DNA from: a virus
Length of the DNA: 15,474 nt
UHGV virus genome: UHGV-0168751
Strand: one strand, 5' to 3'
The stretch's first letter is position 1; the number at the start of each line of letters is the position of its first letter. Positions 1-15,474 of this stretch are shown one piece after another. The position numbers and the translations under genes are program-made. The notes under the pieces are model-generated. The model was given only the letters and a program-made list of their open reading frames with translations. It did not search any database and had not been told where the DNA came from.

Positions 1-44
1 CACGTAAGGAGTCGTCGGCAGCGTCAGATGTGTATAAGAGACAG
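1..44. other. Illumina Nextera adapter remnant: P5 tail fragment CAC, i5 index GTAAGGAG, read-1 adapter TCGTCGGCAGCGTC, Tn5 mosaic end AGATGTGTATAAGAGACAG
   Basis: Exact match by eye to the known Nextera read-1 adapter and mosaic-end sequence; the same string is present reverse-complemented at 15424..15474. The ATG at 28 and the MCIRDS N-terminus of the track ORF 28..1344 are adapter-encoded. Confidence 0.95.
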
Positions 45-1344
45 CCCCTGGATTATGAGTTTTGTTTTAGACGACGAAATTCATTTCTTTGCTACGAAAG
101 ACTACGTCGCACGTTGCGGGCGTGAAAACTTTGAAGCACGACTCGTCAAACGAGCTCAAGAACTGCTTTCTAAAATCGCTTTTCGTGGGAAAGACGAGAA
201 CGACAACCCTATCATTAAATACAAGAACGTTATCGATGGCTACAAAATCTTCGTTTACGAATGCCTCAATTCAGGTTGTTGTATTCAACGGATGTTTGAA
301 GAAATCCACCCACGACTCCCTGATTTATTAGTCGCATGGAACCACGAGTTCGATATTTCACGTATGTTAGAAGCTTTAGAAGCTGCGGGAATTCCACCGG
401 AAGACGTCTTCTGTCACCCTGATGTGCCGAAGCAGTACCGTCGTGTCTACTTTAAGAAAGACGAAGCATCGAAGAAAACGGAATCAAAGTCGTTAACAAA
501 AGCGCCTTCACAACAGTGGCACATACTTTACTGTACCGCATCGTTCTATTGTGTAGATGCAATGTGTCTATTCCGTTCATTGCGTGTTCATGAGGGTCAA
601 CGGCCTTCTTACAAACTTAATGCGATTCTGGAAACAGAGTTAGGTTTAAACAAGTTAGACTTACCGGAGCTGCCTTACGAGGAGAAACTGGAGTGGCACT
701 TAAAAGCACAAAAAGACTTCCCGTTAGAGTATTGCGTTTATAACATCTTCGATAACCTGATGATTGTTCTGCTCGATAAAAAGACGAACGATTTGTCTTC
801 AGCTATTTCGGTGTTGGCCGGTTATTCGATGTACGATATCTTCCCTTCTCTACCAAAACGAATTTGTATTGCTTACACCTATTACCTTTATGAACAAGGA
901 CTCGTTATCGGATGTGTAGGTAGTGCGATGCGTAATGACTTCGATAATGAGGTTATTGGTACAGACGGTTGGATTGTTACGCTCACGGCGTGTATGAACG
1001 CAGAGAACGGATTACGGAACATCATTAAGGAAGTTGATGATTTCTACACGGCTTTCCGTGGTCAAACCGCAGATGCCGACTTAACTCAGGCTTACCCATC
1101 AGCAACAAACATGATGAATCAGTCTCGTGAAACAACGTTAATCGAACTGTTAAGTATTCATGGTGTTCCTGAAGAAGTCCGTCGTCGAGTCGGGATTAAC
1201 CTTACTGCGGGACGTGTTAACGCAATGGAAATCGCAACGGATTTCTTCTTGTTACCTGATAAGAATACCGTGCTGGAAGCTTTCCTACGCCGTCAAGGAG
1301 AGACAATCACCGATCCTTTTGAATACATCAAAACCGTCCACTAA
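45..1344 (+). CDS. Putative 3'-5' exonuclease-like protein (DEDDy/RNase D-like N-terminal domain, unknown C-terminal part); 5' end probably truncated by the fragment boundary
   Basis: Frame is open from the first genomic base; first Met at 55. Exo I-like LDDE at 67..78, Exo II-like N-x-x-F-D (WNHEFD) at 337..354, LG-x-x-K...W...Y-x3-D pattern with YNIFD at 739..753. Stop TAA 1342..1344 is followed by a terminator hairpin. No polymerase motifs seen downstream. Motif match is by eye only. Confidence 0.45.
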
Positions 1345-1360
1345 GAAAAAATAAAAGCTA

Positions 1361-1392
1361 CCCTACTCCTTCGGGAGTAGGGTAATTCTTTT
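1361..1392. terminator. Bidirectional intrinsic terminator between convergent genes
   Basis: 9-bp stem ccctactcc/ggagtaggg (1361..1369 and 1374..1382) closed by a TTCG tetraloop; T-run on plus strand 1383..1392 and A-run 1346..1360 (T-run on the minus strand). Confidence 0.7.
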
Positions 1393-1900
1393 AAGCCGCG
1401 TTGAAACAGTAAGCCAGTAACTGTTGCAGCTCAGGATCGGTTACGCGTTGCAACATGCGACCAACGTTATCACGTTGCGCAAAGTTTGCTTTATCCTGCG
1501 CATTTGCGAAACGCACTAACATGTTGATAAAGACAACATATGTTTCACGTTCTGCGGAATCGTGGAACCAATCTAAATGGTAGTTCACATTCGGGTAGTA
1601 GAAGATACCACGTTTGTGTTTAATTGCCGCTTCAACAAACACGTTGAACGCATCGATGAATGCTTGGCCACGGAGTTCGAATAACGTACGGAACGACTGA
1701 TGCAGTTTACGGAAAGCATCGTCAGCTTCAGCACCGTCTTTTGGTTTATTCTGACCGATTGCGCTGCCAGCTTCATCGAGTTGGGTAGCGATCAAGCGCA
1801 CTTGATACGCGTCGTCCTGGCTGTAAGTTACGGCGGCTTCTTCAGCGCGTTTTACTGCGGACGGACGTGCATCTTGTGTTGAAATATCTTTAGTTGCCAT
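1391..1900 (-). CDS. Hypothetical protein (169 aa)
   Basis: ATG start at 1898..1900 with TAAGGA Shine-Dalgarno about 13 nt upstream, overlapping the stop of the upstream gene; stop lies in the T-run of the 1361..1392 terminator. Confidence 0.6.
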   Translation of the reverse strand: MATKDISTQDARPSAVKRAEEAAVTYSQDDAYQVRLIATQLDEAGSAIGQNKPKDGAEADDAFRKLHQSFRTLFELRGQAFIDAFNVFVEAAIKHKRGIFYYPNVNYHLDWFHDSAERETYVVFINMLVRFANAQDKANFAQRDNVGRMLQRVTDPELQQLLAYCFNAA

Positions 1901-1913
1901 TGGTTAATAATCC

Positions 1914-3215
1914 TTACGTAATGTGGATCAATGGATTAAATTCGTGTACCACAGTCTCTTTACCGTGCATCGCGGCCATTGCCACGGACATAACGTTAGA
2001 GAACGCCGAGGAAATATCCGCAGCGATTGCGCGAGGTTCTTCCCCTTTATTCGCAGACGCGCACGCTGTGCAGCAGTCGATGTGGCCGTATTGACATAAG
2101 ATGGGTCGGCGTAATCGTACCACTTTACCTAACTGTTGCTTTAAATATTCCTCAGTCAGTGGTGTTAATTTACCATTCACCATCGCGTTCATTCCAACGT
2201 AACGCTTCACGTTATCCTCGGTAATCACAACCGGGTACGTTAATTTCGTTCCGCAGTCGCCAGGAACAATTCGATGGTTCTGGAAAATCATCTGGATGAT
2301 ACGTACCTGTTCACCCCCTTTCGCGGTTTCCGCACCACGAGAGAATGAACCCTCGCGAATAGAGTTGAATTTCGCGACCAGGTTTTCCATCCCTGCCTTA
2401 TCCACCTCAACCAGCGCGTTCGGAATGAGCGTGTAATGCCCACCTTCCTGGAAAGATGATTCAATACCATACATCAACATTAGCTTACGTCGACGCATCC
2501 GTGATTTCGGCGAGTTATAGAATTCAATAGATTGGTCTCCCGACAACCATTCTTTATCGAGTTCATCCAACGCCTTTTCAATCTTAACAATAACCGCAGG
2601 ATCGTCTAACTCGTCTTTGTGCTTCAACAATAACGCATCACGGATTTTATACGCATCAGGATGCACTGTAAGGCTTCGTAACGTACCCGTTGGTGCAATA
2701 CCTGACGTAAGCGGTGCAAGTTCGTGTAAGCCACTTACAAAGCGCTCAATCATGCTCGGACGAATCGCACCTTCGTTTTCCGGCTCATCGGTTTCGTGGT
2801 CTAAACAACGACGATGCATCTCTTTGCGATATTCCAACGGGTTTTGTGAAATCGCCAGATACGGTAAGCGCGTACCGAATGCGTACCAGATAACAATCCA
2901 GTTAAAGATATAACGTCCTACGGTAGTAGGAATCGGTCCTTCTAATCCTGGGTAGTCATCCACCTTCAGCTCGAACTGTTCTTCGGGAATAAACAGTTCT
3001 TGGTCTTTTACGCCGTCAGTAATCGGTTCCCAACTACCCTTGCCATCTTCTACAGCGTAGTAATGCGGCAAACCGTCAATATACGTAATATCAAACGCTT
3101 CGGGTTCTTCACGCCCCGTTGGAAACACCGACATGTTAAAGATAGCAATACGCCAGACCAGGCGACGCCATGCTTCGGCTTTACACGCAGCCACTAAGAA
3201 CTCAAATCTCGTCAT
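1914..3215 (-). CDS. Hypothetical protein (about 433 aa from ATG at 3213..3215; track ORF begins at a TTG at 3233)
   Basis: Long open frame; strong SD GAGGAGG (revcomp of 3224..3230) sits 9 nt upstream of the ATG at 3213..3215, which would lie inside the coding region if the TTG start were used. Overlaps the upstream gene stop by 14 nt. Confidence 0.6.
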   Translation of the reverse strand: MTRFEFLVAACKAEAWRRLVWRIAIFNMSVFPTGREEPEAFDITYIDGLPHYYAVEDGKGSWEPITDGVKDQELFIPEEQFELKVDDYPGLEGPIPTTVGRYIFNWIVIWYAFGTRLPYLAISQNPLEYRKEMHRRCLDHETDEPENEGAIRPSMIERFVSGLHELAPLTSGIAPTGTLRSLTVHPDAYKIRDALLLKHKDELDDPAVIVKIEKALDELDKEWLSGDQSIEFYNSPKSRMRRRKLMLMYGIESSFQEGGHYTLIPNALVEVDKAGMENLVAKFNSIREGSFSRGAETAKGGEQVRIIQMIFQNHRIVPGDCGTKLTYPVVITEDNVKRYVGMNAMVNGKLTPLTEEYLKQQLGKVVRLRRPILCQYGHIDCCTACASANKGEEPRAIAADISSAFSNVMSVAMAAMHGKETVVHEFNPLIHIT

Positions 3216-4056
3216 CGTGTTCTGCCTCCTCAACCTGATAAATCACCCGTAGACTTTTTAAAGCAGGTTGTAGAACAGTGATAGGTTGTAACCCATCATT
3301 ATTAAGTTTCTCTAAGTTCGTCGAAAGATCGGCATACGCATCGTCGAAGTCATCGTTATCGATAATCGATAGCCCTACCGTATACATCTCGAGCAATTCC
3401 GTTTCGCTGTAATCCTCAACATCAAACACCAACGATTGTTGGACAACGGTCAAGTCAGGATCTTCGGGTAAGTTTAAGAATACGAACGCAGAGGGGTTTT
3501 GTGGATAAAGTCGTAAATATTCTGCGATACGTGACAGTCGCGCGTCGTTACCTGTCGAGAGTTGTTCATCCACAGCCATTGCTGAGAGGTAGTTACGCAT
3601 TACTGTCATCACACGAGGAGAAACACGAATGACCAAATCTTCAAAATGGATATTATCGTCACCGTATACATAACGGCACATGCTTTCCAGGATATACTCT
3701 GGTGTTTCACCAGACATCACCAGACCGTATAACGTGTCGGTGTCTTCGAACTCTTCGAACTTAGACGTTATACCGTCCAGAATACGTACTGTCTCTTTCG
3801 GCTTACGGAAGACTTCTTGTGGGTTTAAAGCGACGCCTAAACGGTTACCTAATGCTACAGCGCTTTTTACAATAATCCCTTCCAGTCTTACAGTTTCGTC
3901 CGCAGGATCAGATGACGGTTGCCAATACACATCGCTTAACGCAACATCGTAACCGTAATCCATGCACAACGTCACTAAATCCAGGAAAGGCGCAGCACGT
4001 TCTTCCGCACGATTGACGGTAAGAACGGCAGCGTAATCGGTATAAATGTCAATCAT
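3202..4056 (-). CDS. Hypothetical protein with acidic C-terminus (about 284 aa from ATG at 4054..4056; track ORF begins at TTG 4068)
   Basis: Long open frame directly downstream (minus sense) of the 4091..4133 terminator; only a weak SD-like GGAAAAGG before the ATG; start choice is uncertain. Confidence 0.55.
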   Translation of the reverse strand: MIDIYTDYAAVLTVNRAEERAAPFLDLVTLCMDYGYDVALSDVYWQPSSDPADETVRLEGIIVKSAVALGNRLGVALNPQEVFRKPKETVRILDGITSKFEEFEDTDTLYGLVMSGETPEYILESMCRYVYGDDNIHFEDLVIRVSPRVMTVMRNYLSAMAVDEQLSTGNDARLSRIAEYLRLYPQNPSAFVFLNLPEDPDLTVVQQSLVFDVEDYSETELLEMYTVGLSIIDNDDFDDAYADLSTNLEKLNNDGLQPITVLQPALKSLRVIYQVEEAEHDDEI

Positions 4057-4090
4057 AGCCTTTTCCAATACAAGGGGTTCATACCAAAGC

Positions 4091-4133
4091 GAAAAAAAAA
4101 AGAAAAAGCTAAGGGAGTCTTTACGACTCCCTT
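4091..4133 (-). terminator. Intrinsic terminator (minus-strand sense)
   Basis: 9-bp stem aagggagtc/gactccctt (4111..4119 and 4125..4133), 5-nt loop, followed in the minus sense by a long T-run (plus-strand A-run 4091..4108). Confidence 0.65.
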
Positions 4134-4137
4134 ATAC

Positions 4138-4443
4138 TTAATTTTTCAGCTTAAGTTCTTTCTCCAAACCTTGTAGCTCTGGGTCACCGGCAGTAACGTC
4201 ACTCATGACTTTCTTAATCGCGGCTTTACGGCGATTAAGCACACGGAGCATCATCATGATTTCCCACCGTGGTCGATTTAACCACTCATCGAAAGTCATT
4301 CTGAAATGCTCGCCTATCTGCTCACGCAAATACACTTCCATCCAGATTTCGTACAAACTCCCATACTCGGGGTTTTCAAAATCTGATAAGCCAACGTGTT
4401 TCGTCCCGGTGTCTAGACCGACTGATAAATCGTACGCACCCAA
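4138..4443 (-). CDS. Hypothetical small protein (101 aa), questionable
   Basis: The only in-frame start is TTG at 4441..4443 with a poorly spaced SD-like AGGAAG; no in-frame ATG until residue 35. Retained only because the region would otherwise be non-coding in a dense genome. Confidence 0.3.
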   Translation of the reverse strand: MGAYDLSVGLDTGTKHVGLSDFENPEYGSLYEIWMEVYLREQIGEHFRMTFDEWLNRPRWEIMMMLRVLNRRKAAIKKVMSDVTAGDPELQGLEKELKLKN

Positions 4444-4559
4444 AAGCTCATCGTGGGCTTCCTGATAAGTTATCGGGCGCGTGCTACGTTGTTTGAACAG
4501 AGAGGTGGTATCAAGCTTAAGCGTATTAATGACATGATCCGAAGGAATCTCGTTCGGGT

Positions 4560-6518
4560 CTAGCCAATAACGGCGTATTGATCCCTCAGATACCGCTGAA
4601 TCTCGGACACCACTCGAGATAGCTCGAAAAAAACGCGGTCCGGTGAGATCGTCACGATACCACGGTAAGTGCCTTCTTTCTCGCCTTCATGGGTCTTACC
4701 GCAAGACGGACATTTCTGACCCATATACCCGAACACCGCCAAACGACTACGTTCGTTATAGTTCGCCGCAGCAACTTCAAAGTCGTACACATAATGACGA
4801 TCGGAAGACAGTTCCTCCAGAATCTGGATAATCTTATCGGTATCCGTTTCTGTGGTACTTACTTCGCGAACTTCATCGTCCTGCACAACTTCTTCAGTTA
4901 CCGTGATGGATTCCACCATATACGCGTAACGCGTTAGACGACGTGCTTCGGTGATGAGACGAAGATGATCTTCACGCTCACGTTCGGTGCCTTTCTCAGC
5001 CAATGCAGATGTGGAAGCGGTGTTGTTCTCTTCCACCCAACGTTCTGTATTATCAAAGAACTTACCTAGTGTGGAACGACCGAATTTAACGGTAATACCG
5101 TCGCTTACAAATGTCGCAGACGGATCTTTCAGGTGTTCTTCAACAAACTTACGTTGCTCCAAACGGCTGATCGTAACGTCTTCTTTACCACGCTGTTGGG
5201 CCCACAGGCTACGCTGCATATCGGTGTAAAGTGACGTACCCATGCGAATACAACGGGCCAGGTTCAAGCGGATGTCTTCTTGATAACCACAACCTTCATG
5301 GCCACAGATTAACGTCCACGGTAAGCCGCCAGGATATTTCGCTTGCATCACACCAATCAACAGCAACCAGTAATCCGCAAGGTCAATAGTATCCAGCAGC
5401 ACGGTCTTCATGTCGTTCCCTTCGCAATCCAACGTACAGTCGGTGACGAAGCGTAACGCAAATTCAACCATATGGCTTAAATAAATACCTGAAGACGCAG
5501 ATAGCATCAGACCATAAGTCTGCATACCAATTTTTGCAGTTTCCAGGGTCAGCTGAATATCAAAGTCACAGATTTCGCGTTCTAATGGTGCACGGAAACC
5601 GACAAAGATACCTGTTGCTGGCAACCATACCCAGTTAGGGATACCTGACTTACGACGACGGCGAAGTGCCGCAATAGCGCCAGAATGTTGGCTGTTACGT
5701 GGCGTAATGAAACCCACCGGCTTAGACATTCCCGGCAACTGCACACGCTGTTCCCAGGCGGTGTCTTCACGAGACAGCGCACCGTCAAACGCTTGCTGTT
5801 GGTTTTGTAAACGTGGTGGCATCATGTTCAAAGCACGATACAAACGCTCGTACAAATCACGTTGTTCTTCCGATTTAAACAGAAGACGACCATCGCTACC
5901 ACGTGGAATGCTGGAGAAGAATTTCTTCAGTTCACTACCGATAAGGTTCGGATCTTCACGTAAGCCAATCAGCGTATTGAAGTCGGTCAGGATGCGGCCA
6001 GGATCGTCTTCAGGCAATTCGCTGATTTCTTCGTGGGGTGCTTGTGTACCAAAATTCACCCGATGTTCGGATGGCTGTTCTTTTACCGCCGGTGACGCTT
6101 CAGGCTCGTGGTCAGCAGCAATCTGCGGGTCTTCAATCGCTTGAGGAACATAAGGTTCTTCGGCTTTCTTCTCTACCACCGGCTCAGGCTTGTGCTCAAC
6201 AGGTGCAGCAACAGGCTGCGGAATAACCGGTTCCACGACAACAGGTTCTGGTTGAGTAATCGTCACTGCCGGGGCAGGTTCTTCTTCATACACCGGCTTC
6301 GGTAAAATGGGTTCTTCAGCAGGTTTTACTTTTACAAGATTGTGATACATCTCTTCTGCTTGAGCAAAAGAAAAATGGGGATTACTGCGTTTAATAGCCA
6401 TAATCCCATCGTCAGCGGACAGTGTAGACAAGTCAACCTCAGGTACAATGACGTGAGGTGTGTCTTCCTGAGTCCGACGACGCCCATTACCTGGGCGTTG
6501 GTCTAAAGTATCTGACAT
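4560..6518 (-). CDS. Hypothetical protein (652 aa) with Pro/Glu/Val-rich low-complexity N-terminal region and two Cys pairs near the C-terminus
   Basis: ATG at 6516..6518 with AGAGGG SD; start is 3 nt from the upstream stop (TAATTAATG). Residues about 64-150 are PEPVV-type repeats; CGHEGC and CPSC motifs later. No recognisable catalytic motif. Confidence 0.7.
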   Translation of the reverse strand: MSDTLDQRPGNGRRRTQEDTPHVIVPEVDLSTLSADDGIMAIKRSNPHFSFAQAEEMYHNLVKVKPAEEPILPKPVYEEEPAPAVTITQPEPVVVEPVIPQPVAAPVEHKPEPVVEKKAEEPYVPQAIEDPQIAADHEPEASPAVKEQPSEHRVNFGTQAPHEEISELPEDDPGRILTDFNTLIGLREDPNLIGSELKKFFSSIPRGSDGRLLFKSEEQRDLYERLYRALNMMPPRLQNQQQAFDGALSREDTAWEQRVQLPGMSKPVGFITPRNSQHSGAIAALRRRRKSGIPNWVWLPATGIFVGFRAPLEREICDFDIQLTLETAKIGMQTYGLMLSASSGIYLSHMVEFALRFVTDCTLDCEGNDMKTVLLDTIDLADYWLLLIGVMQAKYPGGLPWTLICGHEGCGYQEDIRLNLARCIRMGTSLYTDMQRSLWAQQRGKEDVTISRLEQRKFVEEHLKDPSATFVSDGITVKFGRSTLGKFFDNTERWVEENNTASTSALAEKGTEREREDHLRLITEARRLTRYAYMVESITVTEEVVQDDEVREVSTTETDTDKIIQILEELSSDRHYVYDFEVAAANYNERSRLAVFGYMGQKCPSCGKTHEGEKEGTYRGIVTISPDRVFFELSRVVSEIQRYLRDQYAVIG

Positions 6519-6521
6519 TAA

Positions 6522-7094
6522 TTAACCCTCTGCTTCAACGACAGTATCCGGTTGTTTTACAGCCTGTTCAGCTTGCTGTAGAAGTTCATACGCTTCAGCG
6601 AACGTACTGCCCTGCTGCATTGCACGTTTTACAAAATCAGCACGGCTGTTGTAGAGTGACAAGATTTCGATCGCAGCGCCCTGAATATCTTTGCCCAGGA
6701 ACATCGCATCGGTTTCCAGGTTAGTCACCAGCAGCGTATCCAGCTCGTATTGCTCTTTGACTTTGGCCCAGTTTGCACTTTCCAGCAATGCTTTGGATTT
6801 GCTTGCCACTTCGTCAATCGCAATCAGTTTGGCACCCAGCTTCTCTTTCCCTTCTGCCATCAGGCCCACGAAAGCCGCTTTCGCTTCTTCTAATGCGTTA
6901 ATGGCAAATTCTTTATATTCGGGTTCTTGCAGCGCGTCCAGAATCTCACGTTCTTTGTCAATACGCTCAGCCAGGATTTTCATTTGGTCTTCAAACAGAA
7001 TGACCAGTTTATACACGTTCTTCACGCTATCACGAAGTGATTTCTTCGCCAGAGCACGTGGGTTATAAGCGGGTTTCTTTTTACGACGTGACAT
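6522..7094 (-). CDS. Hypothetical protein (190 aa) with basic N-terminus (MSRRKKKPAYNPR) and helical, charged remainder
   Basis: ATG at 7092..7094 with AAAGGAA SD 9 nt upstream; lies immediately downstream (minus sense) of the 7111..7142 terminator. Confidence 0.65.
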   Translation of the reverse strand: MSRRKKKPAYNPRALAKKSLRDSVKNVYKLVILFEDQMKILAERIDKEREILDALQEPEYKEFAINALEEAKAAFVGLMAEGKEKLGAKLIAIDEVASKSKALLESANWAKVKEQYELDTLLVTNLETDAMFLGKDIQGAAIEILSLYNSRADFVKRAMQQGSTFAEAYELLQQAEQAVKQPDTVVEAEG

Positions 7095-7110
7095 TTTTAT
7101 ATTCCTTTAA

Positions 7111-7142
7111 CAAAAAAGAAAGGGTGTACACAATATACACCC
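7111..7142 (-). terminator. Intrinsic terminator (minus-strand sense)
   Basis: Stem gggtgta/tacaccc (7122..7128 and 7136..7142) with 7-nt loop, followed in the minus sense by a T-run (plus-strand A-run 7111..7121). Confidence 0.55.
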
Positions 7143-7154
7143 GTTCTGTACTTT

Positions 7155-7538
7155 TTAACCGTTATCGTGAGGAACGGTTACCCAGCTGTGCCATTTCTCG
7201 GAGTATAACCGATAAGCCACTTTCGGGTTTTGGTCTACACTCCCTGCGGGGTTTTCAACCCACAGCACCCAGCTATACAGCTCGTAAGACGACGTATTAC
7301 GAATACTGGAGTTACGTGTGATGTAATAACATTTACCTCGTTGAAAAATCTGCATTCCTGCGTAGTGTTCATTCACCATGTAATAGTGAAACGCAACGCT
7401 CATCACAGGATCGGTGCAGAGTTTATTTACGACGTCTAAAACGTCGGGATACGCCTTTAAAACTTTTTCGAGAAAACTTGCTAAGTTCAGACCGGCATAC
7501 GGCGCGGTTGGCTCTGTTGGCTGCGGCGGTAGTAACAT
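7155..7538 (-). CDS. Hypothetical protein (127 aa)
   Basis: ATG at 7536..7538 with strong SD AAGGAAAG; start lies 116 nt inside the 3' end of the helicase gene in a different frame. Confidence 0.55.
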   Translation of the reverse strand: MLLPPQPTEPTAPYAGLNLASFLEKVLKAYPDVLDVVNKLCTDPVMSVAFHYYMVNEHYAGMQIFQRGKCYYITRNSSIRNTSSYELYSWVLWVENPAGSVDQNPKVAYRLYSEKWHSWVTVPHDNG

Positions 7539-9132
7539 CGGCTTTCCTTACAATATACGGTGAGGTGGCTATCTTAAACGACAACACAGAATCACTCAGT
7601 GACTTTTGACGCGCATTCAAGTAATTGCAGTGTTTCGGTATCGAGTAAGAATGGAATAACCACACAACGGGATCGAGTTCACCCCAATCGTTGTGGAGAA
7701 TCTTACGTGGGCGTCCGGCCATCTGGCGGTTTAACTGTTGGTCTTCCACAGGGGTGGTAATGTACATGTGAACCAACCCCGGTTTGTCAACCGCAGTACC
7801 CGCTTTCCCTGGTGTTGAAATAGAGAAATCCGCTTGAATAAAGTCGTCATACGAATCCCCTGCGTTATATTTCGCAACCATTAATGCATGGAACTTATCA
7901 GACTGTGCAAGTTTCTCTCGCACATATTCCGTAAAGAATTCACACATCGCAACTGTTGCAAACAACACCAATACTTTCTGACCAGGTTGATAACCTGCCA
8001 GATACGTCCGTTCTATCACGTCCCAGACCATATCCGCGTACGACTGATGAAGGTTTTCGCTAATCAACTTCCCTTCAAACAGTTTGTGGTTATACGGGGT
8101 CATCTTCGTTGCCCACCACGCAAACCGCTTATTTTCAATTCTGTAATACAACGCTTTCACATGTACCGCAGGAATAATCGGAATGGTGATACGTGCCTCT
8201 TGTGGGAAACGTTCTTTATACCGTTCTGCCAAGAATGCTTTTGATTCGCCCGGTTGGAGTGTGGCCGACATTTCGACAGAAGGTGGCGGATTCAACATAA
8301 TTCCAGCCATGTACACCAAGTGGAAATGTTCGTGCACTTCGTCCATCGATAAAAACCCGACACCTAACGTGTTATAGAAATCATCGATGTTCACTGGATT
8401 AGTCGCAGCAGTATTGATATACTCTTTCAAAAACCGCTGTAACGTCACCGTAGAGACGATAATCACTTTGATGCCACGTTTATCCAGCTCACCACTTTCA
8501 CCCATTTCTAGCGCTTCGTAGACCGCTTGTACGCCCTGTATAACCAGGACGTCTTCTTTCGATTCACGAAGGCCAGTAGGATCTTCCGTTAAGTCGAATA
8601 ACCACTTGGAAATATATGTGGGCCGATGAATCAATAACGTTCTTACCCCTTTACGAACCATCACCTTCATGTTGGTTTTCGACTTACCCATACCGGTGCC
8701 GATTTCAAAGATGGTTTGTAAACGGTTCGGCTGACAGGCCGTTTCGACAACCCCATTCTGATAAAAGAAACGTGACGACTCATCCTCTTCTATCATGTTA
8801 AAACCGTAGTTTTCAAACGTACAACGGTAAGGGGTTCCTTGGGTTAAGTGATGCTCGTAAAGTTTGAAGTCAATTGCAAACTCAGCAGCCGTTCGGTTAA
8901 TAATGATTCGTAAACGTTCGGAAAAATTCCGGTGGAATATAAAAGTACGGATAGAAGGAATATGCGCGTAATACGGATCACCACGTTCGGTAATAATTCT
9001 TCCGTATTGCTTGCCCATTTTCGGGGCGTGCATATTCTCTTCTGCCCACTTTAAGATTGCCGACTCTATAGGTCGGCAAGGGACTTCGACCCTCACGCCC
9101 ATACTCGTAAAGGTCATGTGGAATTCGTACAT
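7423..9132 (-). CDS. Superfamily 2 DExH-box helicase/ATPase (569 aa), nucleic-acid substrate unknown
   Basis: Motif I GTGMGKSKT, motif II DEVH, motif III SAT, motif IV-like VLVLFATV, motif V-like STPGKAGTAVD, motif VI QMAGRPR, in canonical order and spacing (core about 7693..8715). ATG at 9130..9132 with strong SD AAGAGGGGAG. Basic C-terminal tail RRFRRRK. Confidence 0.8.
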   Translation of the reverse strand: MYEFHMTFTSMGVRVEVPCRPIESAILKWAEENMHAPKMGKQYGRIITERGDPYYAHIPSIRTFIFHRNFSERLRIIINRTAAEFAIDFKLYEHHLTQGTPYRCTFENYGFNMIEEDESSRFFYQNGVVETACQPNRLQTIFEIGTGMGKSKTNMKVMVRKGVRTLLIHRPTYISKWLFDLTEDPTGLRESKEDVLVIQGVQAVYEALEMGESGELDKRGIKVIIVSTVTLQRFLKEYINTAATNPVNIDDFYNTLGVGFLSMDEVHEHFHLVYMAGIMLNPPPSVEMSATLQPGESKAFLAERYKERFPQEARITIPIIPAVHVKALYYRIENKRFAWWATKMTPYNHKLFEGKLISENLHQSYADMVWDVIERTYLAGYQPGQKVLVLFATVAMCEFFTEYVREKLAQSDKFHALMVAKYNAGDSYDDFIQADFSISTPGKAGTAVDKPGLVHMYITTPVEDQQLNRQMAGRPRKILHNDWGELDPVVWLFHSYSIPKHCNYLNARQKSLSDSVLSFKIATSPYIVRKADVTTAAANRANRAVCRSELSKFSRKSFKGVSRRFRRRK

Positions 9133-9143
9133 GCTCCCCTCTT

Positions 9144-9171
9144 ACAAAAAAAGAGGGGCGCAGGCCCCTCT
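9144..9171 (-). terminator. Intrinsic terminator (minus-strand sense) between the beta-prime-like gene and the helicase gene
   Basis: GC-rich stem gaggggc/gcccctc (9153..9159 and 9164..9170, extendable by one A-T pair), 4-nt loop, followed in the minus sense by TTTTTTT (plus-strand A-run 9146..9152). Confidence 0.7.
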
Positions 9172-9174
9172 CGT

Positions 9175-11274
9175 TTACTCAATGATAGTCGCGGCCACCG
9201 TATTGTCGTATAACGACGCCGGACGTTTACGTGACGTATAGAAACGCACGTTGTCCAGGTTTTTCTGTTGGCCTTCGAATAACAACATCGGTACAGCTGA
9301 ACGTATCGCAATCAACGTGTTGTGATCTTCGAAACGTTTACCGTCCATGATATCTGCGTCTTCGCTATCAAACCCAACTGCCGGGAAAGGATTGGTTGGT
9401 GACTCAACGCGAGATATCGCCAGCATAATCGCGATGTGTGTCATCGGAATACCACCGAGCTTACGCTGAATATACTTAAACACATCAAACAACGCATGTG
9501 TACATTGTTTTTCCGTAGCACCGCGCATCTGAACCAGTGTTGTGGGTTTTACTTTACCCGACTTCTTGCTCAAACGCATTGAGTCATCCGAGAACTGTTC
9601 GAAAGTATCCGATTTATCAGAAGCAACCGAACGAAGTTTCAATTCTAACCCTGCTACGAACTCCGCCATAGATTCAGACCGATTCGTATAAATTAGTATC
9701 GGCCAACTCGGTTTCCAGCCTTTCAGTGGAATCCGTACCAGTTTCTTCGACGGGAACGTAATGTTATCACGCTGCTTCAGGAAGAAATGCAAGAAGGCTT
9801 TCGAGAAGTTACCACAAACCCCCATACGGACGTCGATGGGATCTTCAGCCAGTACATTCCCGGCTTCATCCATCCGCAAAAAGGTCAGTTCGTTAATCTC
9901 CGGCAACGCCGTTTCGTCAATCACTTCCAAATCGTCATGGTACGCGATTTGGCTGATTTCAGAATAGACTTCATCGGAAATAACGAGTTGGTATTCATCC
10001 CAATTACCGTACTGCGGTTTCTCTCGTAAACTTAGACCTTTTACAGAGTTGTGTTTATACTCCCCAAGATAATCCCGCATTCTTGGGGTCAGTACCAGAT
10101 TCAACAGATAGCGCAAGAAGTCTAAATGTTTCGTTGAGAGAATCCCCTGGGTACCCTTTTCAGATATCGAGGTTGAGGCCAAGTGACCTGGTGACGTTCC
10201 CGGCGAAAGGTTATAAATCAAATCACCCATGCAGGTTGCACAAATGCTTTGACGCGCCATCCCCTTACAACACATCGCAGTACGGAACTCAATAGGTTTG
10301 CCTAAGACTTTCTCAAACTCCCCTTTCTCGAATCGTAGCCACGGACCTCCCATGCCTTCAAAACGATAACGCATTCCCACCATCGCATCGTACTTCTTAC
10401 GCTCCAGTTTACTTTCTGTAAACGTGTGGCGATGAACGTGATGCGTACCACAATCGTCGTATTCGAAATACATTAACACGTTGGCTGCTAACTGTAGCTT
10501 ACGTGACGCGTATTCCGCATCGGCGATTTTATCGGTATTATAAAGATGAGAACGTGACGTTGCCCCGGCTTCCTTCAGGCGGCTAATTACGGAATGCAGA
10601 CCCGTAAAGAAACCTTCCCATACCTGGTTAGAATAAACGCGGGAATCAATCTCGGATGTTTTCCCACGTATATACGCCTGAAGAACCTGGTTCATTTTGA
10701 TGGTCTTATCCAAGACCGACATCACCACAGGGTTTAAACGAAGTTGTGGGTCTTTGAAGATATCCTCGATAAGAAGATATGCTTCCTCAACCATATCACG
10801 ACCTTCTTCGTCGTACCCAGTAGGATACATTTGTGCCCACTGATGAATCTGCGTAAAGTTTCGGTGTTGGTAAATTTCCATCATCGTATCGTAGTCAATC
10901 GTGACGCAATACGACAACAGATTTTTCACCGACAAGTTAAACGCATCCGCATAAACGTGCTGCTGCAATAAGTAACGAGTGTCTGCTAAATCCACGCCCG
11001 CTTTACGTGCCGCCACAGCTGCCAATGACATAAACTTCAGATGTGCGTCATCTGTCGCGGTGTCACCATGTTTATACGCCATCTGTGAACTGATTGGGAT
11101 CTGCGGATAAAATCGTGTTAGACCCCAATAAGGCCAACTTATTTTAATGTGGCGTCCTGACATGTTTAAGGTTACCCCATCGTCGAACGTCACTTCATAT
11201 CTGCCGCGTAATAGCCACACCTGATCCGAGTTCAGTTTACACAAATCACGCACGTGAACTGGAGTGCCCTTCAT
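9175..11274 (-). CDS. Multisubunit RNA polymerase beta-prime-like protein, C-terminal module (699 aa)
   Basis: Trigger-loop-like segment ASTSISEKGTQGILSTKH (about 10120..10197) resembles the bacterial SIGEPGTQLTMRTFH; a weaker bridge-helix-like segment lies about 130 residues upstream, matching the bacterial spacing. No Asp-triad catalytic loop, so the N-terminal beta-prime module is not here. ATG overlaps the upstream stop (TAATG). By-eye similarity only. Confidence 0.6.
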   Translation of the reverse strand: MKGTPVHVRDLCKLNSDQVWLLRGRYEVTFDDGVTLNMSGRHIKISWPYWGLTRFYPQIPISSQMAYKHGDTATDDAHLKFMSLAAVAARKAGVDLADTRYLLQQHVYADAFNLSVKNLLSYCVTIDYDTMMEIYQHRNFTQIHQWAQMYPTGYDEEGRDMVEEAYLLIEDIFKDPQLRLNPVVMSVLDKTIKMNQVLQAYIRGKTSEIDSRVYSNQVWEGFFTGLHSVISRLKEAGATSRSHLYNTDKIADAEYASRKLQLAANVLMYFEYDDCGTHHVHRHTFTESKLERKKYDAMVGMRYRFEGMGGPWLRFEKGEFEKVLGKPIEFRTAMCCKGMARQSICATCMGDLIYNLSPGTSPGHLASTSISEKGTQGILSTKHLDFLRYLLNLVLTPRMRDYLGEYKHNSVKGLSLREKPQYGNWDEYQLVISDEVYSEISQIAYHDDLEVIDETALPEINELTFLRMDEAGNVLAEDPIDVRMGVCGNFSKAFLHFFLKQRDNITFPSKKLVRIPLKGWKPSWPILIYTNRSESMAEFVAGLELKLRSVASDKSDTFEQFSDDSMRLSKKSGKVKPTTLVQMRGATEKQCTHALFDVFKYIQRKLGGIPMTHIAIMLAISRVESPTNPFPAVGFDSEDADIMDGKRFEDHNTLIAIRSAVPMLLFEGQQKNLDNVRFYTSRKRPASLYDNTVAATIIE

Positions 11275-13511
11275 TATTCATCGCCCCTTTTCATTTTCAC
11301 CAATTCAAACCCTTCGCAGTTGTGGATGTTTTTCATCATCCTGTCAATCTGTGAATCCCCTAACGGGAATTTATTCCGGTCTACCAGCGGACCCGGATTA
11401 GACGGGGTTTGAGATCGATAAAGCCCTACTAAAATCTCACGATGCACCGCAGGGTTGTTTGCCCTATCGTGAACTTCTTCGTAGTTACCTGGACCATAAC
11501 CCGCTAACAGTCGTTCTTCCGAAGGACCAGCCCATTTTAGCGTTTTATAGTTTATCGGATACGAACCACGGCCTTGGTTAGACGCGTCTATCGTGCCCAG
11601 ATAGTTCAGGTACATTGACGAGATACTGGAAAACTCACGGCCTGTTTTATCCAGACGTAATGTTTCCACACCGCCCACGTAAAACTCGTCTTTTGTCCAT
11701 TCCTGTTTACCGTCGAAATTAGTAATCAGGAGTTTGGATTTACGCGGTTTAAATTCACCTAACCGTTCGCTGATATCGACAGGTGTGTCATCCAGCTCAT
11801 GCGGCAAATAGATACGGATTGTAAAATCGTAAATCTCTTTAAAGAGTTCGCGTTGTAAATCCTCCGTAGGATGCGTTACCTGTAGTGTATTGGCCCAATC
11901 AGGATTATAACGTGACAGATAATCCATCAGGATTTCCCAGCTCTCACTGATACGCCCTTCATCCAGCATTGGTTTAAGACGCATCTTCAGCTGCTCAGAC
12001 GCCGCTGACCAATACATGTGGAACAGTGCTGCATAAGTCGAACGACGAATTACAGCGTTCATCGAACGTAAAACATGAACACGTTCACCGAATTCGTTAA
12101 TCGGCATCTGTTCAACGGGTAATACACGTCCAACAATCCCTTTCGTACCCGAACGGTCAGTAATCTTAGACGATACCGTTACCGGGATCGGATAACGAAC
12201 CGCAATACGAATAGTATACGTATTGATGGGATCGCTGAGTCCACGTTGTACTGGTGAGGTCAACTTAGAAAGAATCTGTTGGCTAACATTTTCTTTACCG
12301 TATTCACCACGACGAATGGCTTCATCAATCACCACGCGAATCTCTTCACGAAATTCGTGATAGACTTCGTAGGTTTCAGATGCAAACGCTTTTTCCAACA
12401 ACACACACGCTTTCGGTGACCAGATAATATTTTTGTCACGAGACATCGAGAAATAGAATCGCACAATGGCATTGTAATAATCTTTCAATGCTAATGCGTA
12501 TTTATCTAACTCTCGTTTGTTCTCTTCAGTACAAGAAATATTGTTAGTCCCATTCGCACAGGACGTTTCATCGCGCCACACCTGAATGTCCACGATACGT
12601 GTACCGCTACGCTCCATCAGTTCTTTGTCACCTGCCAGCCGCGCTTTATAATGGACGGGATCGGCATCCACATATTCGCAACTATCAAAGAACGGTGAAA
12701 CGTGTTGGGTTTCCCCAAGCGTCGCATCAATCGCAGCGTAAAGTTCATCGAAACGACGTGATGCAATAACCAACCCGTCATCACGAATAGCTTCGCCCAC
12801 ATCCGGGAAATAACGAGGAACGCGATTACCGTTCGGATCGTTATACCCATAGGTGTCTAACAGAAACTCATCTTCACGCAACGTTTTCTCGATGATTTTC
12901 AATCCATACCCGTGAAGCTTTTGTGCGGCGTATTCAGAAATGGTGTAGGAATCCTCGATAATGTCAGGATGCGAAATCGTAACGGTGGGTAGCACTACGC
13001 TGTCAGCGTATTCTCCTTCTACCATGCACGGCATCGTTGTAAGGATTTCATCTTTTTCCAACTGATCGGTTTCACCACGCAAAATACTGCGCAGTTTCAT
13101 CGATTCATGTTTCTCAGATGAGAAGATGTTGTCGTGATTGGTATAGAAGTTAATCTCCAACACGTCTATCATGGTTTTACCGCCTTTCATTTCTGCGCGG
13201 CGGAAGAAGATAGCGTGCTCCAGTGCTTTAGAATCCCCACGGCGTCCATAACGTGTAAACGTTGCACGACGCTGACGACCGTCTTTGGTCATATAGTGAC
13301 AGATGCTACCGGGATCTTCTACAACGTCGTTGAACAGAAAATCGTGGTAGTTTATATCTGCCCCTGTAAAATGTGGTGATGGTTCAGGATTGTCAATGGG
13401 GACCGCAGACTTCATATGGTTGCCTACCATCGATGCCCTTGCACCGGATACTTCGGTGATGTTAATCTCACGGTCAGCTACACTGCTCATTAGCTCTACT
13501 GGCGTTTTCAT
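11274..13511 (-). CDS. Multisubunit RNA polymerase beta-like protein, C-terminal module (745 aa)
   Basis: Residues 451-490 DRSGTKGIVGRVLPVEQMPINEFGERVHVLRSM (about 12042..12161) align with the conserved beta segment [33 protein letters not shown]; the C-terminal KWAGPSEERLLAGYG resembles beta EVWALEAYGA. Motif position implies only the C-terminal roughly 740 residues of a beta subunit. ATG at 13509..13511 with AAGGAG SD. Confidence 0.75.
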   Translation of the reverse strand: MKTPVELMSSVADREINITEVSGARASMVGNHMKSAVPIDNPEPSPHFTGADINYHDFLFNDVVEDPGSICHYMTKDGRQRRATFTRYGRRGDSKALEHAIFFRRAEMKGGKTMIDVLEINFYTNHDNIFSSEKHESMKLRSILRGETDQLEKDEILTTMPCMVEGEYADSVVLPTVTISHPDIIEDSYTISEYAAQKLHGYGLKIIEKTLREDEFLLDTYGYNDPNGNRVPRYFPDVGEAIRDDGLVIASRRFDELYAAIDATLGETQHVSPFFDSCEYVDADPVHYKARLAGDKELMERSGTRIVDIQVWRDETSCANGTNNISCTEENKRELDKYALALKDYYNAIVRFYFSMSRDKNIIWSPKACVLLEKAFASETYEVYHEFREEIRVVIDEAIRRGEYGKENVSQQILSKLTSPVQRGLSDPINTYTIRIAVRYPIPVTVSSKITDRSGTKGIVGRVLPVEQMPINEFGERVHVLRSMNAVIRRSTYAALFHMYWSAASEQLKMRLKPMLDEGRISESWEILMDYLSRYNPDWANTLQVTHPTEDLQRELFKEIYDFTIRIYLPHELDDTPVDISERLGEFKPRKSKLLITNFDGKQEWTKDEFYVGGVETLRLDKTGREFSSISSMYLNYLGTIDASNQGRGSYPINYKTLKWAGPSEERLLAGYGPGNYEEVHDRANNPAVHREILVGLYRSQTPSNPGPLVDRNKFPLGDSQIDRMMKNIHNCEGFELVKMKRGDE

Positions 13512-13574
13512 TTTAATGCTCCTTTAGGTTGATTCGGTAGGATAATATCTATCTCACTTATTTTAGGAACGATT

Positions 13575-13898
13575 ATGTTAGACAATTTTATTACCCTAGA
13601 AGAATTCATACCTGCGCCTTACACCACGACGTGGAAAGTGATGCACGATTACACAGACTATCTGCGTAAACACCCGAAAACTAAAATAGAAAATGTTGAC
13701 CCACGCTACAGCTGGCCTGAAGTCCACAATTTCTACGCCTACTGTAAACTCAAAGGTTACGCCGATATCATTATCTATCCGATGATGCTATTAAACGGGC
13801 TAGAAGACCCCATGAATTTCACCCCTGAAATCACGCAGCTGATCGTTCCCGACGTCGGGACGGTCAGTGAGATTATTAGCACCATCGGCGACTATTAA
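13575..13898 (+). CDS. Hypothetical protein (107 aa), the only internal plus-strand gene
   Basis: ATG at 13575 with AGGAA SD; ends at TAA just before the 13902..13930 hairpin. Divergent from the beta-like gene and convergent with the 459-aa gene. Confidence 0.5.
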   Translation: MLDNFITLEEFIPAPYTTTWKVMHDYTDYLRKHPKTKIENVDPRYSWPEVHNFYAYCKLKGYADIIIYPMMLLNGLEDPMNFTPEITQLIVPDVGTVSEIISTIGDY

Positions 13899-13901
13899 AA
13901 A

Positions 13902-13930
13902 AAGAAGGGACCGTGTCCCTTCTTTTATAT
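13902..13930. terminator. Bidirectional intrinsic terminator between convergent genes
   Basis: Stem aagaagggac/gtcccttctt (13902..13911 and 13915..13924) with a short loop, flanked by an A-run upstream and a T-rich run downstream on the plus strand. Confidence 0.65.
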
Positions 13931-13935
13931 TTCAC

Positions 13936-15315
13936 TTAACGCGTAAACGCTGAAGTTGCAATTCCACCGAAGCTGTTTTGGGATTGTCCACCAAAACTGT
14001 TGTTCGTTGCAAATGCTGAACTTGTGCTAAACGCGCTAGTACCCCCTACATTCCCGCCAAAGGAATTACTTCCTCCACCAAAGGTACTTGCCAAAGAACC
14101 CCCGGTATTTCCCCCACCGAAATTACCCTGGCCTCCGAATGGGGACATCTTACGCTCACCACCAAACGCATCCACAACAGAGATTCGACTTACCATACCG
14201 TTGGCAGGGTTGGTCGTGCCGTGTTGTTCAGCGTAGCGTTGCATCGCCGGTGTCAAATTCCCATAGGGACTATGTGCGGCCATGCTACGCTCACGGGCGC
14301 GGAAGAATTCCATCGGATCAGACTTATCTGCCTTATCTGCGTCCGATGCACGTTTCTGCGGGATCTGCTGCGGAGCCTGCTCACGATCAATACGGAAATC
14401 ATGCGCTGTGGTATCCCGTTCAGGACTGTCAGAGCGTGGACCAGTGTTATACGGTAAGGTCTGAATGACGTTATCGTAAATTTCCATATTGTCCAGCTGA
14501 GAAATCCATTCATCTTCTAACGGTCGTAATGGGGAATGGTCACGCAACCCTTTAACGACGTTGTTATAGTTTACAACGTACTGTGCCCAACCGCGTGCTA
14601 AACAACCGAAGTACGGACGAGAATCATTAGACCCTGTTACACTCGGATACCAACCAAATACGGTGGTCAGTAAACGATGAATAATGATTTTGTCCTGCTT
14701 ACGTTGAAGTTTCGCAGAGAAGTACATTGCAGTACCATCTAACGATTCTTCTTCAAACATATTTCGATAATTGGCAACACGGTTAAATTTCACACCGTCA
14801 ATAACTAAATCGGATGCGATAAAGAGCTGAGTAATCTTGTGCTTTTTATCCTTTTCCAGTTGGGCGTAGACAAATGCTTTAACCGCTTCCCAGGATTTCA
14901 CCAAACGTTCGTCAAACGTCGGATCTTTCATCCCTTCACAAATCTGTTCTGTTAAGAACTTCTTGTAAGAAGCGGAACGTACCGCTTTGCCGCTTGCTCC
15001 GGTTTCCAAAATTGCATCGATTAGCGCAAACGAACGAATGAACAGGTTCGCATTGATGGATTTCTTCAGAAAACGAATTGTCCCAGATTCGCCTGCCAAT
15101 ACCGATTCGCATAACGGATGAAACGCCTGGCATTCACGACCATCATCGTCTTCCATGCCGCGCTTAATCATCGCTGGGGTAGGAAGCGCCAGACGGCGCT
15201 TCACTTTGTTATACGTAAACTCTGCCGGTTCACCACCGTCACGAGTAAGTAAATCGTTTTCGAAATCGTATCCTTGTGATTTAAGAAACGATTTGTAGAA
15301 TTCAATAATTTTCAT
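13936..15315 (-). CDS. Hypothetical protein (459 aa) with Gly/Ser/Phe-rich low-complexity C-terminal tail of repeated SFGG/FGGG units
   Basis: ATG at 15313..15315 with AAGGA SD 8 nt upstream; the last 76 residues (13939..14166) are a run of FGG-type repeats; terminator follows the stop. Confidence 0.7.
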   Translation of the reverse strand: MKIIEFYKSFLKSQGYDFENDLLTRDGGEPAEFTYNKVKRRLALPTPAMIKRGMEDDDGRECQAFHPLCESVLAGESGTIRFLKKSINANLFIRSFALIDAILETGASGKAVRSASYKKFLTEQICEGMKDPTFDERLVKSWEAVKAFVYAQLEKDKKHKITQLFIASDLVIDGVKFNRVANYRNMFEEESLDGTAMYFSAKLQRKQDKIIIHRLLTTVFGWYPSVTGSNDSRPYFGCLARGWAQYVVNYNNVVKGLRDHSPLRPLEDEWISQLDNMEIYDNVIQTLPYNTGPRSDSPERDTTAHDFRIDREQAPQQIPQKRASDADKADKSDPMEFFRARERSMAAHSPYGNLTPAMQRYAEQHGTTNPANGMVSRISVVDAFGGERKMSPFGGQGNFGGGNTGGSLASTFGGGSNSFGGNVGGTSAFSTSSAFATNNSFGGQSQNSFGGIATSAFTR

Positions 15316-15337
15316 TTAAGAGTCCTTGATTAATCTT

Positions 15338-15423
15338 TTACTCGCCGAATGCACCAAAGCCAGTTACTGGCGCAGGAGTTGACATATCGCTGCTACCAAA
15401 GCTGCCGAAACTACCCAGGGTTG
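15338..15423 (-). CDS. 3' end of a gene truncated by the fragment boundary; encoded C-terminus is Gly/Phe-rich (TLGSFGSFGSSDMSTPAPVTGFGAFGE)
   Basis: Frame open from the last genomic base (15423) to stop TAA at 15338..15340; next gene starts 22 nt downstream in the minus sense. Confidence 0.5.
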
Positions 15424-15474
15424 CTGTCTCTTATACACATCTGACGCTGCCGACGACTCCTTACGTGTAGATCT
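15424..15474. other. Illumina Nextera adapter remnant, reverse complement of the left-end adapter (mosaic end, read-1 adapter, i5 index CTCCTTAC, P5 fragment GTGTAGATCT)
   Basis: CTGTCTCTTATACACATCTGACGCTGCCGACGA followed by CTCCTTAC and GTGTAGATCT; exact inverted copy of 1..44 extended into P5. Confidence 0.95.

Follow-up and report, generated by a model that had tools for sequence, protein, structure and literature searches.

Results

Gene content of the window

The window (the whole stretch of 15,474 nt that was analysed) consists of a block of jumbo-phage genes bounded at each end by an inward-pointing copy of a synthetic adapter. Its features are as follows.

1-3, plus strand: last 3 nt (CAC) of the P5 flow-cell sequence, a suffix of AGATCTACAC; exact suffix match to the 70-nt i5 oligonucleotide
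4-11, plus: i5 index GTAAGGAG (index 505); published index table
12-44, plus: Tn5ME-A/Nextera read-1 adapter, TCGTCGGCAGCGTC and mosaic end AGATGTGTATAAGAGACAG; exact match
12-25, plus, and 15443-15456, minus: 14-nt read-1 primer site TCGTCGGCAGCGTC, directly 5' of the mosaic end; exact
26-44, plus, and 15424-15442, minus: 19-nt mosaic end AGATGTGTATAAGAGACAG, adjoining the insert; 0 mismatches
28-45, plus: false start codon and false N-terminus MCIRDS; ATG inside the mosaic end
45-15423: native insert, from the interior of a jumbo phage genome of the SPN3US/Asesino-like type; gene order and identity to longer contigs
46-1344, plus: DNA polymerase, 3' fragment, residues 162-593 of 593; phrog_3011, E 2e-178, profile 164-573 of 576
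1391-1900, minus: conserved jumbo-phage protein, 169 aa; phrog_7825; Asesino gp60 orthologue
1914-3233, minus: gene for a phage multisubunit RNA polymerase beta-type subunit fragment, about 433 aa; phrog_2962, E 4.5e-169; Asesino gp59
3202-4068, minus: conserved protein, about 284 aa; phrog_7807
4138-4443, minus: conserved protein, 101 aa; phrog_7580
4560-6518, minus: conserved protein, 652 aa; phrog_8054; Asesino gp56
6522-7094, minus: conserved protein, 190 aa; phrog_8045
7155-7538, minus: small conserved gene overlapping the 3' end of the helicase gene; phrog_9835
7423-9132, minus: DNA helicase, 569 aa; phrog_16, E 4e-50; Asesino gp53
9175-11274, minus: RNA polymerase beta/beta'-type subunit, 699 aa; phrog_3015, E 2.9e-224; Pfam Rpb1_5 weak, below cutoff
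11274-13511, minus: RNA polymerase beta-type subunit, 745 aa; phrog_3295, E 2.6e-253; Pfam RNA_pol_Rpb2_6, 24.4 bits, cutoff 23.4
13575-13898, plus: conserved protein, 107 aa; phrog_3455
13936-15315, minus: conserved protein, 459 aa; phrog_3520; Asesino gp49
15338-15423, minus: final 27 codons, with the stop, of the gene for a 568-aa protein; orthologue of Asesino gp48; phrog_3141
15424-15456, minus: Tn5ME-A/read-1 adapter, inverted orientation; exact match
15457-15464, minus: i5 index GTAAGGAG, read on the plus strand as CTCCTTAC; index table
15465-15474, minus: last 10 nt of P5 (AGATCTACAC), read on the plus strand as GTGTAGATCT; published primer

All 13 ORFs scanned against PHROGs fall in jumbo-phage families, and it was this search that proved informative; Pfam returned one match just above its cutoff, one weak match and nothing else for the insert proteins. 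The insert contains the conserved block of DNA polymerase, RNA polymerase subunit, helicase and RNA polymerase subunit that is found in SPN3US/Asesino-like phages, and its genes stand gene for gene in the order of the 14-gene block of Erwinia phage Asesino (gp48-gp61) and Proteus phage 7. The overlap between the small gene at 7155-7538 and the helicase gene has its counterpart in gp54/gp53 of Asesino. In these relatives the block lies at about 25-55 kb of genomes of 242-246 kb, and the contig represents about 6% of the roughly 240 kb genome from which it derives.

At the protein level, the DNA polymerase shares 76-81% identity with that of SPN3US/Asesino-like isolates (Seoulvirus, Erskinevirus). 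The best isolate genomes share 71-76% nucleotide identity with the insert over only 23-44% of the 15 kb fragment; membership of Seoulvirus or Erskinevirus would call for about 70% or more across the whole genome. With even the best isolates this distant, and alignable to under half of its length, the insert probably comes from an undescribed species, and possibly an undescribed genus, of this group of jumbo phages. At least six independent public datasets contain the insert at 97.6-100% identity. A scan of genome contigs for a host gave only a weak 33% partial match to a Campylobacter MAG, which is uninformative, and a scan of the window for sigma-70 promoters gave 18 sites against 23.8 expected, which is not above background.

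The window ends match a Nextera oligonucleotide exactly

Bases 1-44 and 15424-15474 match without exception the Nextera i5 PCR primer together with the Tn5ME-A oligonucleotide, whose order from 5' to 3' is P5 tail, index 505 (GTAAGGAG), TCGTCGGCAGCGTC and the 19-nt mosaic end. Published oligonucleotide tables give the 33-mer as Tn5ME-A and GTAAGGAG as i5 index 505, and the full i5 primer is published as beginning AATGATACGGCGACCACCGAGATCTACAC-GTAAGGAG-TCGTCGGCAGCGTC. The left end reads CAC, then GTAAGGAG, then the 33-mer TCGTCGGCAGCGTCAGATGTGTATAAGAGACAG; the right end is the reverse complement of AGATCTACAC, GTAAGGAG and the same 33-mer. Compared with the Illumina i5-side adapter the window ends show no difference, being identical base for base over 44 and 51 nt, and the defining elements (mosaic end, read-1 site, i5 index with the 3' end of P5, and non-native status) are all found. 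The mosaic end occurs exactly twice in the window at up to three mismatches, with 0 mismatches in both copies, against 0.01 expected by chance; at the same tolerance no internal copy was found within the window, nor did oligonucleotide matching find any i7-side adapter or P7 sequence there.

An inverted repeat finder reported a single perfect terminal pair, 1-45 with 15423-15467, 45 nt long at 100% identity. Its 45th pair, C45/G15423, consists of native bases that are each conserved in relatives, and this last pairing is therefore due to chance. An earlier note on this DNA had described both termini as mosaic end, read-1 adapter, i5 index and a piece of P5 in inverted arrangement, and had set the limits of the insert at 45 and 15423; the oligonucleotide matches bear out the description, and the limits are correct to the base.

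Independent assemblies read through both junctions

To examine the junctions we used four assemblies of this phage that are independent of the window (ERZ27268788, of 79 kb; GCA_051109635.1; ERZ28629076; and Logan SRR24045184), which are 97.6-100% identical to the window and match it inward from base 45 and up to 15421-15423. Their divergence from the window falls between bases 44 and 45 and between bases 15423 and 15424, and past both junctions they carry differing, native sequence for kilobases in which the adapter string is absent. Uninterrupted single alignments to independent contigs cover 45-11901 at 97.6% and 3936-15423 at 100%. Judged by sequence comparison, the Nextera adapters at the window termini are not native to the phage. 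An adapter-free assembly, apparently of the same reads, also ends at base 45, which makes a true lack of coverage the probable cause of the break on the left. A single Tn5 insertion into a circular molecule was considered and rejected: it would duplicate 9 bp at the insert ends, but the insert opens with the 9-mer CCCCTGGAT and closes with a different one, CCAGGGTTG. We also saw a CCCTGG/CCAGGG likeness just inside both junctions, with a 2-nt offset, which we judge to be chance.

Reading frames are open to both boundaries of the insert, on the plus strand from 46 and on the minus strand from 15423. At the left, the DNA polymerase is without residues 1-161, the fragment beginning at what is residue 163/164 of 596/594 in isolate homologues; at the right, about 541 residues of the 568-aa protein are missing. 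The ATG at 28, within the mosaic end, yields MCIRDS-PWIMSF, in which the codon at 43-45 (AGC, S) is itself chimeric, made of two adapter bases and one native base where the native codon is GAC (Asp161). The proposals that the adapter creates a false ATG and the MCIRDS N-terminus, that ORFs run into both ends of the insert with the genome continuing on either side, and that the fragment is internal all stand: the start codon lies in the mosaic end, both end genes are cut (the polymerase begins at residue 162 of 593 and only the last 27 of 568 aa remain of the other), relatives read through, and in them the block sits at about 25-55 kb of the genome.

The same adapter ends other public contigs

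When IMG/VR was scanned for the two adapter types, each gave matches at at least 120 loci, and contamination of this kind is therefore widespread among viral contigs in public collections; a search of the literature for surveys of residual adapters in public assemblies yielded nothing specific. Among the matches listed, 118 of 121 for the 33-mer are terminal and inward-pointing, as are the copies in the window, so that at least 118 unrelated contigs end in the same string. The 8-nt slot beside the 33-mer holds at least 16 different i5 octamers among these matches, the bases upstream of the slot are always a suffix of AGATCTACAC, and the 12-mers downstream of the 33-mer are distinct in 120 of the 121. 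The i7-side (B-type) adapter behaves likewise (124 of 125 listed matches terminal). Adapter tails at assembled contig tips measure 33-86 nt among the matches listed, a range that includes the 44 and 51 nt of the window. Five of the nine both-ended contigs among the listed matches carry the identical adapter type at both tips, and the presence of the i5-side adapter at both tips of the window accordingly needs no special explanation. In two of the listed contigs, L015 and L142, the adapter is distant from both ends of the available stretch.

Discussion

The window is the ENA record ERZ1026973 NODE_313, and its full name, NODE_313_length_15474_cov_5.188144, indicates a short-read de Bruijn assembly at a low coverage of about 5x. 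From the identity and inward orientation of the adapters, the exact junctions, the native sequence that other assemblies carry across them and the loss of part of each end gene, we conclude, with a probability of about 0.98, that the terminal inverted repeat is an artefact of library preparation and assembly. The 15,379 nt between its arms are, on the same conclusion, genuine phage DNA free of chimeric joins, which comes from within a jumbo phage genome of about 240 kb and encodes a DNA polymerase, a helicase and the split subunits of a multisubunit RNA polymerase. We found nothing substantive that speaks against the artefact. The sample would have been tagmented by Tn5 and amplified with an i5 primer bearing index 505; the kit appears, from sequence alone, to have been of the Nextera type, and a literature search on ERZ1026973, SAMN06164670, MEHT18 and ERZ28629076 to identify the sample found no papers. 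Some library fragments would have been shorter than the read length, and reads from the i7 side (read 2) would have run through the insert into the reverse-complemented mosaic end, read-1 adapter, i5 index and P5. Left untrimmed or incompletely trimmed, such reads could have led the short-read assembler to extend two contig tips into adapter at independent Tn5 cuts, between 44 and 45 and between 15423 and 15424, and then to stop; the read 2 route, the incomplete trimming and the assembler's reason for stopping at each end are what we infer from this pattern.

A perfect 45-nt inverted repeat placed exactly at both termini, with a 19-nt core derived from the ends of Tn5/IS50, would at first sight suit a transposon or a 15.5 kb linear replicon with true inverted repeats at its ends, but the repeat is the synthetic hyperactive mosaic end joined to Illumina primer sites and an index. 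The Reznikoff laboratory engineered the 19-nt mosaic end as a hybrid of the Tn5 outside and inside ends, and the sequence CTGTCTCTTATACACATCT differs at 3 and 4 positions, respectively, from what we take to be those natural ends. Its tip (...CAG) adjoins the 15.4 kb insert at either side, and since the tips face inward the insert is target DNA and not transposon cargo; in a natural Tn5/IS50 composite transposon, outside or inside ends enclose transposase and cargo, whereas here the phage DNA would lie outside the 'transposon' and no transposase gene is present. The contig contains nothing beyond the repeats, where the 9-bp target-site duplication of such an element would lie, and the first and last 9-mers of the insert are unlike. 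Linear phage genomes with genuine inverted terminal repeats resemble the window in having a perfect inverted repeat, 20 nt or longer, at both ends, but complete linear genomes have intact end genes and termini common to their relatives, whereas here the end genes are truncated, relatives read through the junctions and the repeat is synthetic. The recurrence of the string, with varying indices, on unrelated contigs, together with the native read-through in near-identical phage contigs that are without the repeat, refutes a transposon or linear replicon, and we regard its likelihood as negligible.

The same adapter and index at both ends might instead reflect one physical, tagmented molecule of 15.4 kb with adapter A at either end, captured by long-read or synthetic-long-read sequencing, and Tn5 tagmentation does yield A-A fragments. 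The record has, however, the name of a SPAdes-style node with a k-mer coverage of 5.19, its adapter tails are unequal and inside the range seen at assembled tips, and A-A fragments, which lack P7, do not form clusters on Illumina flow cells. We consider a single molecule very unlikely; were it right, the adapters would still be artefactual and the fragment internal. Least probable of all is that the contig is chimeric, with unrelated pieces joined internally by adapter-mediated misassembly. Untrimmed adapters can cause false joins, and the two listed IMG/VR contigs noted above have adapter away from the ends, but the window has no internal mosaic end even at three mismatches, its alignments to independent contigs are continuous and its gene order agrees with Asesino and Proteus phage 7 throughout; the continuous alignments and the absence of an internal mosaic end refute internal chimerism.

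As a library-preparation and assembly artefact the terminal repeats are of a known kind, and nothing novel is left in them. Their value is one of data hygiene only, in that they present a false terminal repeat, a false signal of a complete genome and a false N-terminus. The virome tools CheckV, geNomad and Cenote-Taker use inverted terminal repeats (perfect, with 20 nt or more accepted) as a signal of completeness, and pipelines would therefore read the perfect 45-nt repeat as an ITR and hence the contig as a complete genome; the warning in the earlier note that it could be mistaken for a genuine terminal repeat was well founded. We recommend trimming bases 1-44 and 15424-15474 and marking the genes at either end as partial. 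The public gene call already bears the mark of the adapter, more heavily than the earlier note had feared: it runs for 447 aa from base 1 and places the adapter-encoded HVRSRRQRQMCIRDS, 15 false N-terminal residues, on the truncated DNA polymerase.

Nextera adapters at both ends

The terminal inverted repeat is not biological: it is Nextera adapter sequence left over at the tips of the contig, an artefact of a known type. The observation made in the earlier note was confirmed, and its interpretation, adapters at the ends of an internal fragment, is supported. We compared both ends with the 70-nt Nextera i5 oligo, P5-[i5]-Tn5ME-A, and found inward-pointing matches on either side of the insert (45-15423).

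Matches of the window to the i5 oligo
1-44, +: left end, CAC + GTAAGGAG + TCGTCGGCAGCGTCAGATGTGTATAAGAGACAG
15424-15474, -: right end, reverse complement of AGATCTACAC + GTAAGGAG + the left-end 33-mer

In published oligo tables Tn5ME-A is the 33-mer present at both ends of the window, i5 index 505 is GTAAGGAG and the full i5 primer is AATGATACGGCGACCACCGAGATCTACAC-GTAAGGAG-TCGTCGGCAGCGTCAGATGTGTAT; together with the oligo match, these establish to the base that inverted i5-side adapters occupy both ends, as had been proposed. A repeat finder returned one terminal inverted repeat (1-45 / 15423-15467), perfect over 45 nt. Its 45th pair, C45/G15423, is native and pairs by chance, because related contigs share both bases. 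The 19-nt mosaic end is present in exactly two copies in the window (0.01 expected by chance, with up to 3 mismatches allowed); no internal copy was found in the window even with 3 mismatches allowed, and oligo matching detected neither the i7-side adapter nor P7 sequence there.

Scanning IMG/VR for exact copies of the 33-mer yielded at least 120 loci. Among the matches listed, 118 of 121 lay at a contig end and pointed inward, the 8-nt slot upstream held many different octamers (its 501-508 members agreeing with the published i5 list), sequence further upstream was always a suffix of AGATCTACAC, and the 12-mers following the mosaic end were distinct in 120 of 121. The i7-side adapter (again at least 120 loci) behaved in the same way, being terminal in 124 of the 125 matches listed. 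Adapter tails in the listed matches have a median length of 46-48 nt (range 33-86 nt), and those of the window, at 44 and 51 nt, are of typical length. Nine listed contigs had adapters at both ends, of the same type in five, and such an arrangement is therefore not unusual; matching types on one contig create a false inverted terminal repeat. Same-type examples include L029 (i5-side at both ends) and L136, L193, L234 and L236 (i7-side at both ends), and many IMG/VR viral contigs (loci L013-L236) carry either adapter type at their ends. In the IMG/VR loci L015 and L142 the adapter is far from either end of the examined stretch, which may mark a chimeric join.

Native sequence beyond the junctions

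A look-up of exact protein matches showed the window to be ENA ERZ1026973 NODE_313_length_15474_cov_5.188144 and found longer contigs with proteins identical to its own, which were then aligned by megablast.

Contigs aligned to the window by megablast
45-11901: ERZ27268788 k141_35881 (79 kb), 97.6% identity
45-5727: GCA_051109635.1 contig 57, 98.0% identity
3936-15423: ERZ28629076 scaffold_141, 100% identity
12942-15421: Logan SRR24045184_7260, 99.4% identity

All four run kilobases past the insert, and base-level alignments showed identity as far as 45 or 15423 with unrelated native sequence outside. The native junctions in the relatives, with a slash at the breakpoint, are ...TCTCGAGA/CCCCTGG on the left and ...CCAGGGTTG/TAGGTGCC on the right; the genome thus continues beyond both positions, as the earlier note had held. 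The ERZ28629076 assembly was probably built from the same sample as the window. Its scaffold_2491 (L011, 1-1921) is 100% identical, adapter-free and stops exactly at window base 45, and its scaffold_141 continues through the right junction; the assembly has a further break near window 1946-1965, in sequence that the window spans without interruption. At 97.6-99.4% nucleotide identity, this phage also occurs in the unrelated public datasets ERZ27268788, Logan SRR21910067, SRR24045184, SRR34222453 and GCA_051109635.1 (loci L006, L008, L009, L010 and L004).

Truncated genes and a false N-terminus

The + frame entering at base 46 starts at residue 162 of 593 in the DNA polymerase encoded by the 79 kb contig (431/432 residues identical), at residue 163/164 of the 596-aa/594-aa orthologues in Asesino/Proteus phage 7, and at profile position 164/576 of phrog_3011. 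From 15423 the open - frame yields just TLGSFGSFGSSDMSTPAPVTGFGAFGE and a stop, the final 27 residues of a 568-aa protein (phrog_3141; window copy 15338-15423, -) that is complete in scaffold_141. The fragment is accordingly internal. The phrog_3141 orthologues, of ~570-585 aa (also at L001 27203-28957 and L002 18273-19973), all have a low-complexity C-terminal tail, rich in Gly, Ser, Leu and Phe and unconserved in sequence between phages.

The suspected false start proved real: the ATG at 28 sits within the mosaic end, and codon 43-45 is a chimera that reads AGC (Ser) here, where the native codon is GAC (Asp161). The public gene call on the ENA contig (447 aa; window 1-1344, +) starts at base 1, so the first residues of its product are HVRSRRQRQMCIRDS, encoded by the adapter, and the protein collection lists a truncated DNA polymerase with this N-terminus. 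These artefacts have practical weight, as virome pipelines take inverted terminal repeats as evidence of complete genomes and adapter-encoded residues get into protein catalogues.

Origin of the adapter tips

When a Nextera insert is shorter than the read, read 2 runs through the insert into the reverse complement of the mosaic end and read-1 adapter, i5 and P5. Such read-through sequences would have stayed untrimmed, and the assembler would have extended the two contig tips into them. The insert's first 9 nt are not the same as its last 9 nt, so the two junctions stem from independent cuts by Tn5. On the left, the window probably breaks at a genuine gap in its roughly 5x coverage, since the adapter-free scaffold_2491 likewise ends exactly at base 45; on the right another assembly crosses the junction, and the adapter tip therefore displaced the true path.

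A genuine inverted repeat of a transposon or linear replicon is ruled out by the synthetic composition of the string, its orientation and the truncated end genes, as well as by the lack of a transposase, the presence of the string at the ends of unrelated contigs and the divergence of relatives at the junctions; the tip of the mosaic end adjoins the insert, which is thus the target DNA. That the window represents a single long tagmented molecule with i5-side adapters at both ends is unlikely, its record name being SPAdes-style with a coverage value, and would leave the conclusion unchanged. Internal chimerism of the contig is excluded by the megablast alignments to other contigs and the absence of an internal mosaic end.

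Identity and gene content of the insert

When the insert was compared with 50,697 phage records by megablast, all the records listed were jumbo phages, 239-247 kb in size: Proteus phage 7 (classified as Seoulvirus SPN3US), the Erwinia phages Asesino, phiEaH2 and relatives, and Salmonella phages. Nucleotide identity was 71-76%, across no more than 44% of the insert, and because the nearest isolate genomes are this distant, the insert probably derives from an SPN3US/Asesino-like jumbo phage of an undescribed species, present in several public datasets; this probable species is the only mildly new item. Gene order is the same as in Asesino gp48-gp61 and the corresponding block of Proteus phage 7, which in those genomes is found around 25-55 kb. 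By PHROGs, the insert encodes a DNA polymerase and a helicase; three further genes are for RNA-polymerase beta-type subunits, and another eight for conserved proteins of unknown function. Pfam was nearly silent, and the content is ordinary for this group.

At 7155-7538 (-) lies a 127-aa ORF with a strong match to phrog_9835 (E 9e-60). It shares ~100 nt with the 3' end of the helicase gene (7423-9132), read in a different frame, and falls in a stretch that the public gene caller left empty; the same overlap is annotated for Asesino gp54/gp53.

Intergenic gaps contain strong GC-rich hairpins with a T run after each; these are probably intrinsic terminators.

Intergenic hairpins with T runs
1358-1385: bidirectional, between convergent genes
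4110-4134
7122-7142
9151-9172
13897-13920

Two elements, 9146-9169 and 13897-13920, form a direct repeat whose copies are 75% identical (repeat family D13).
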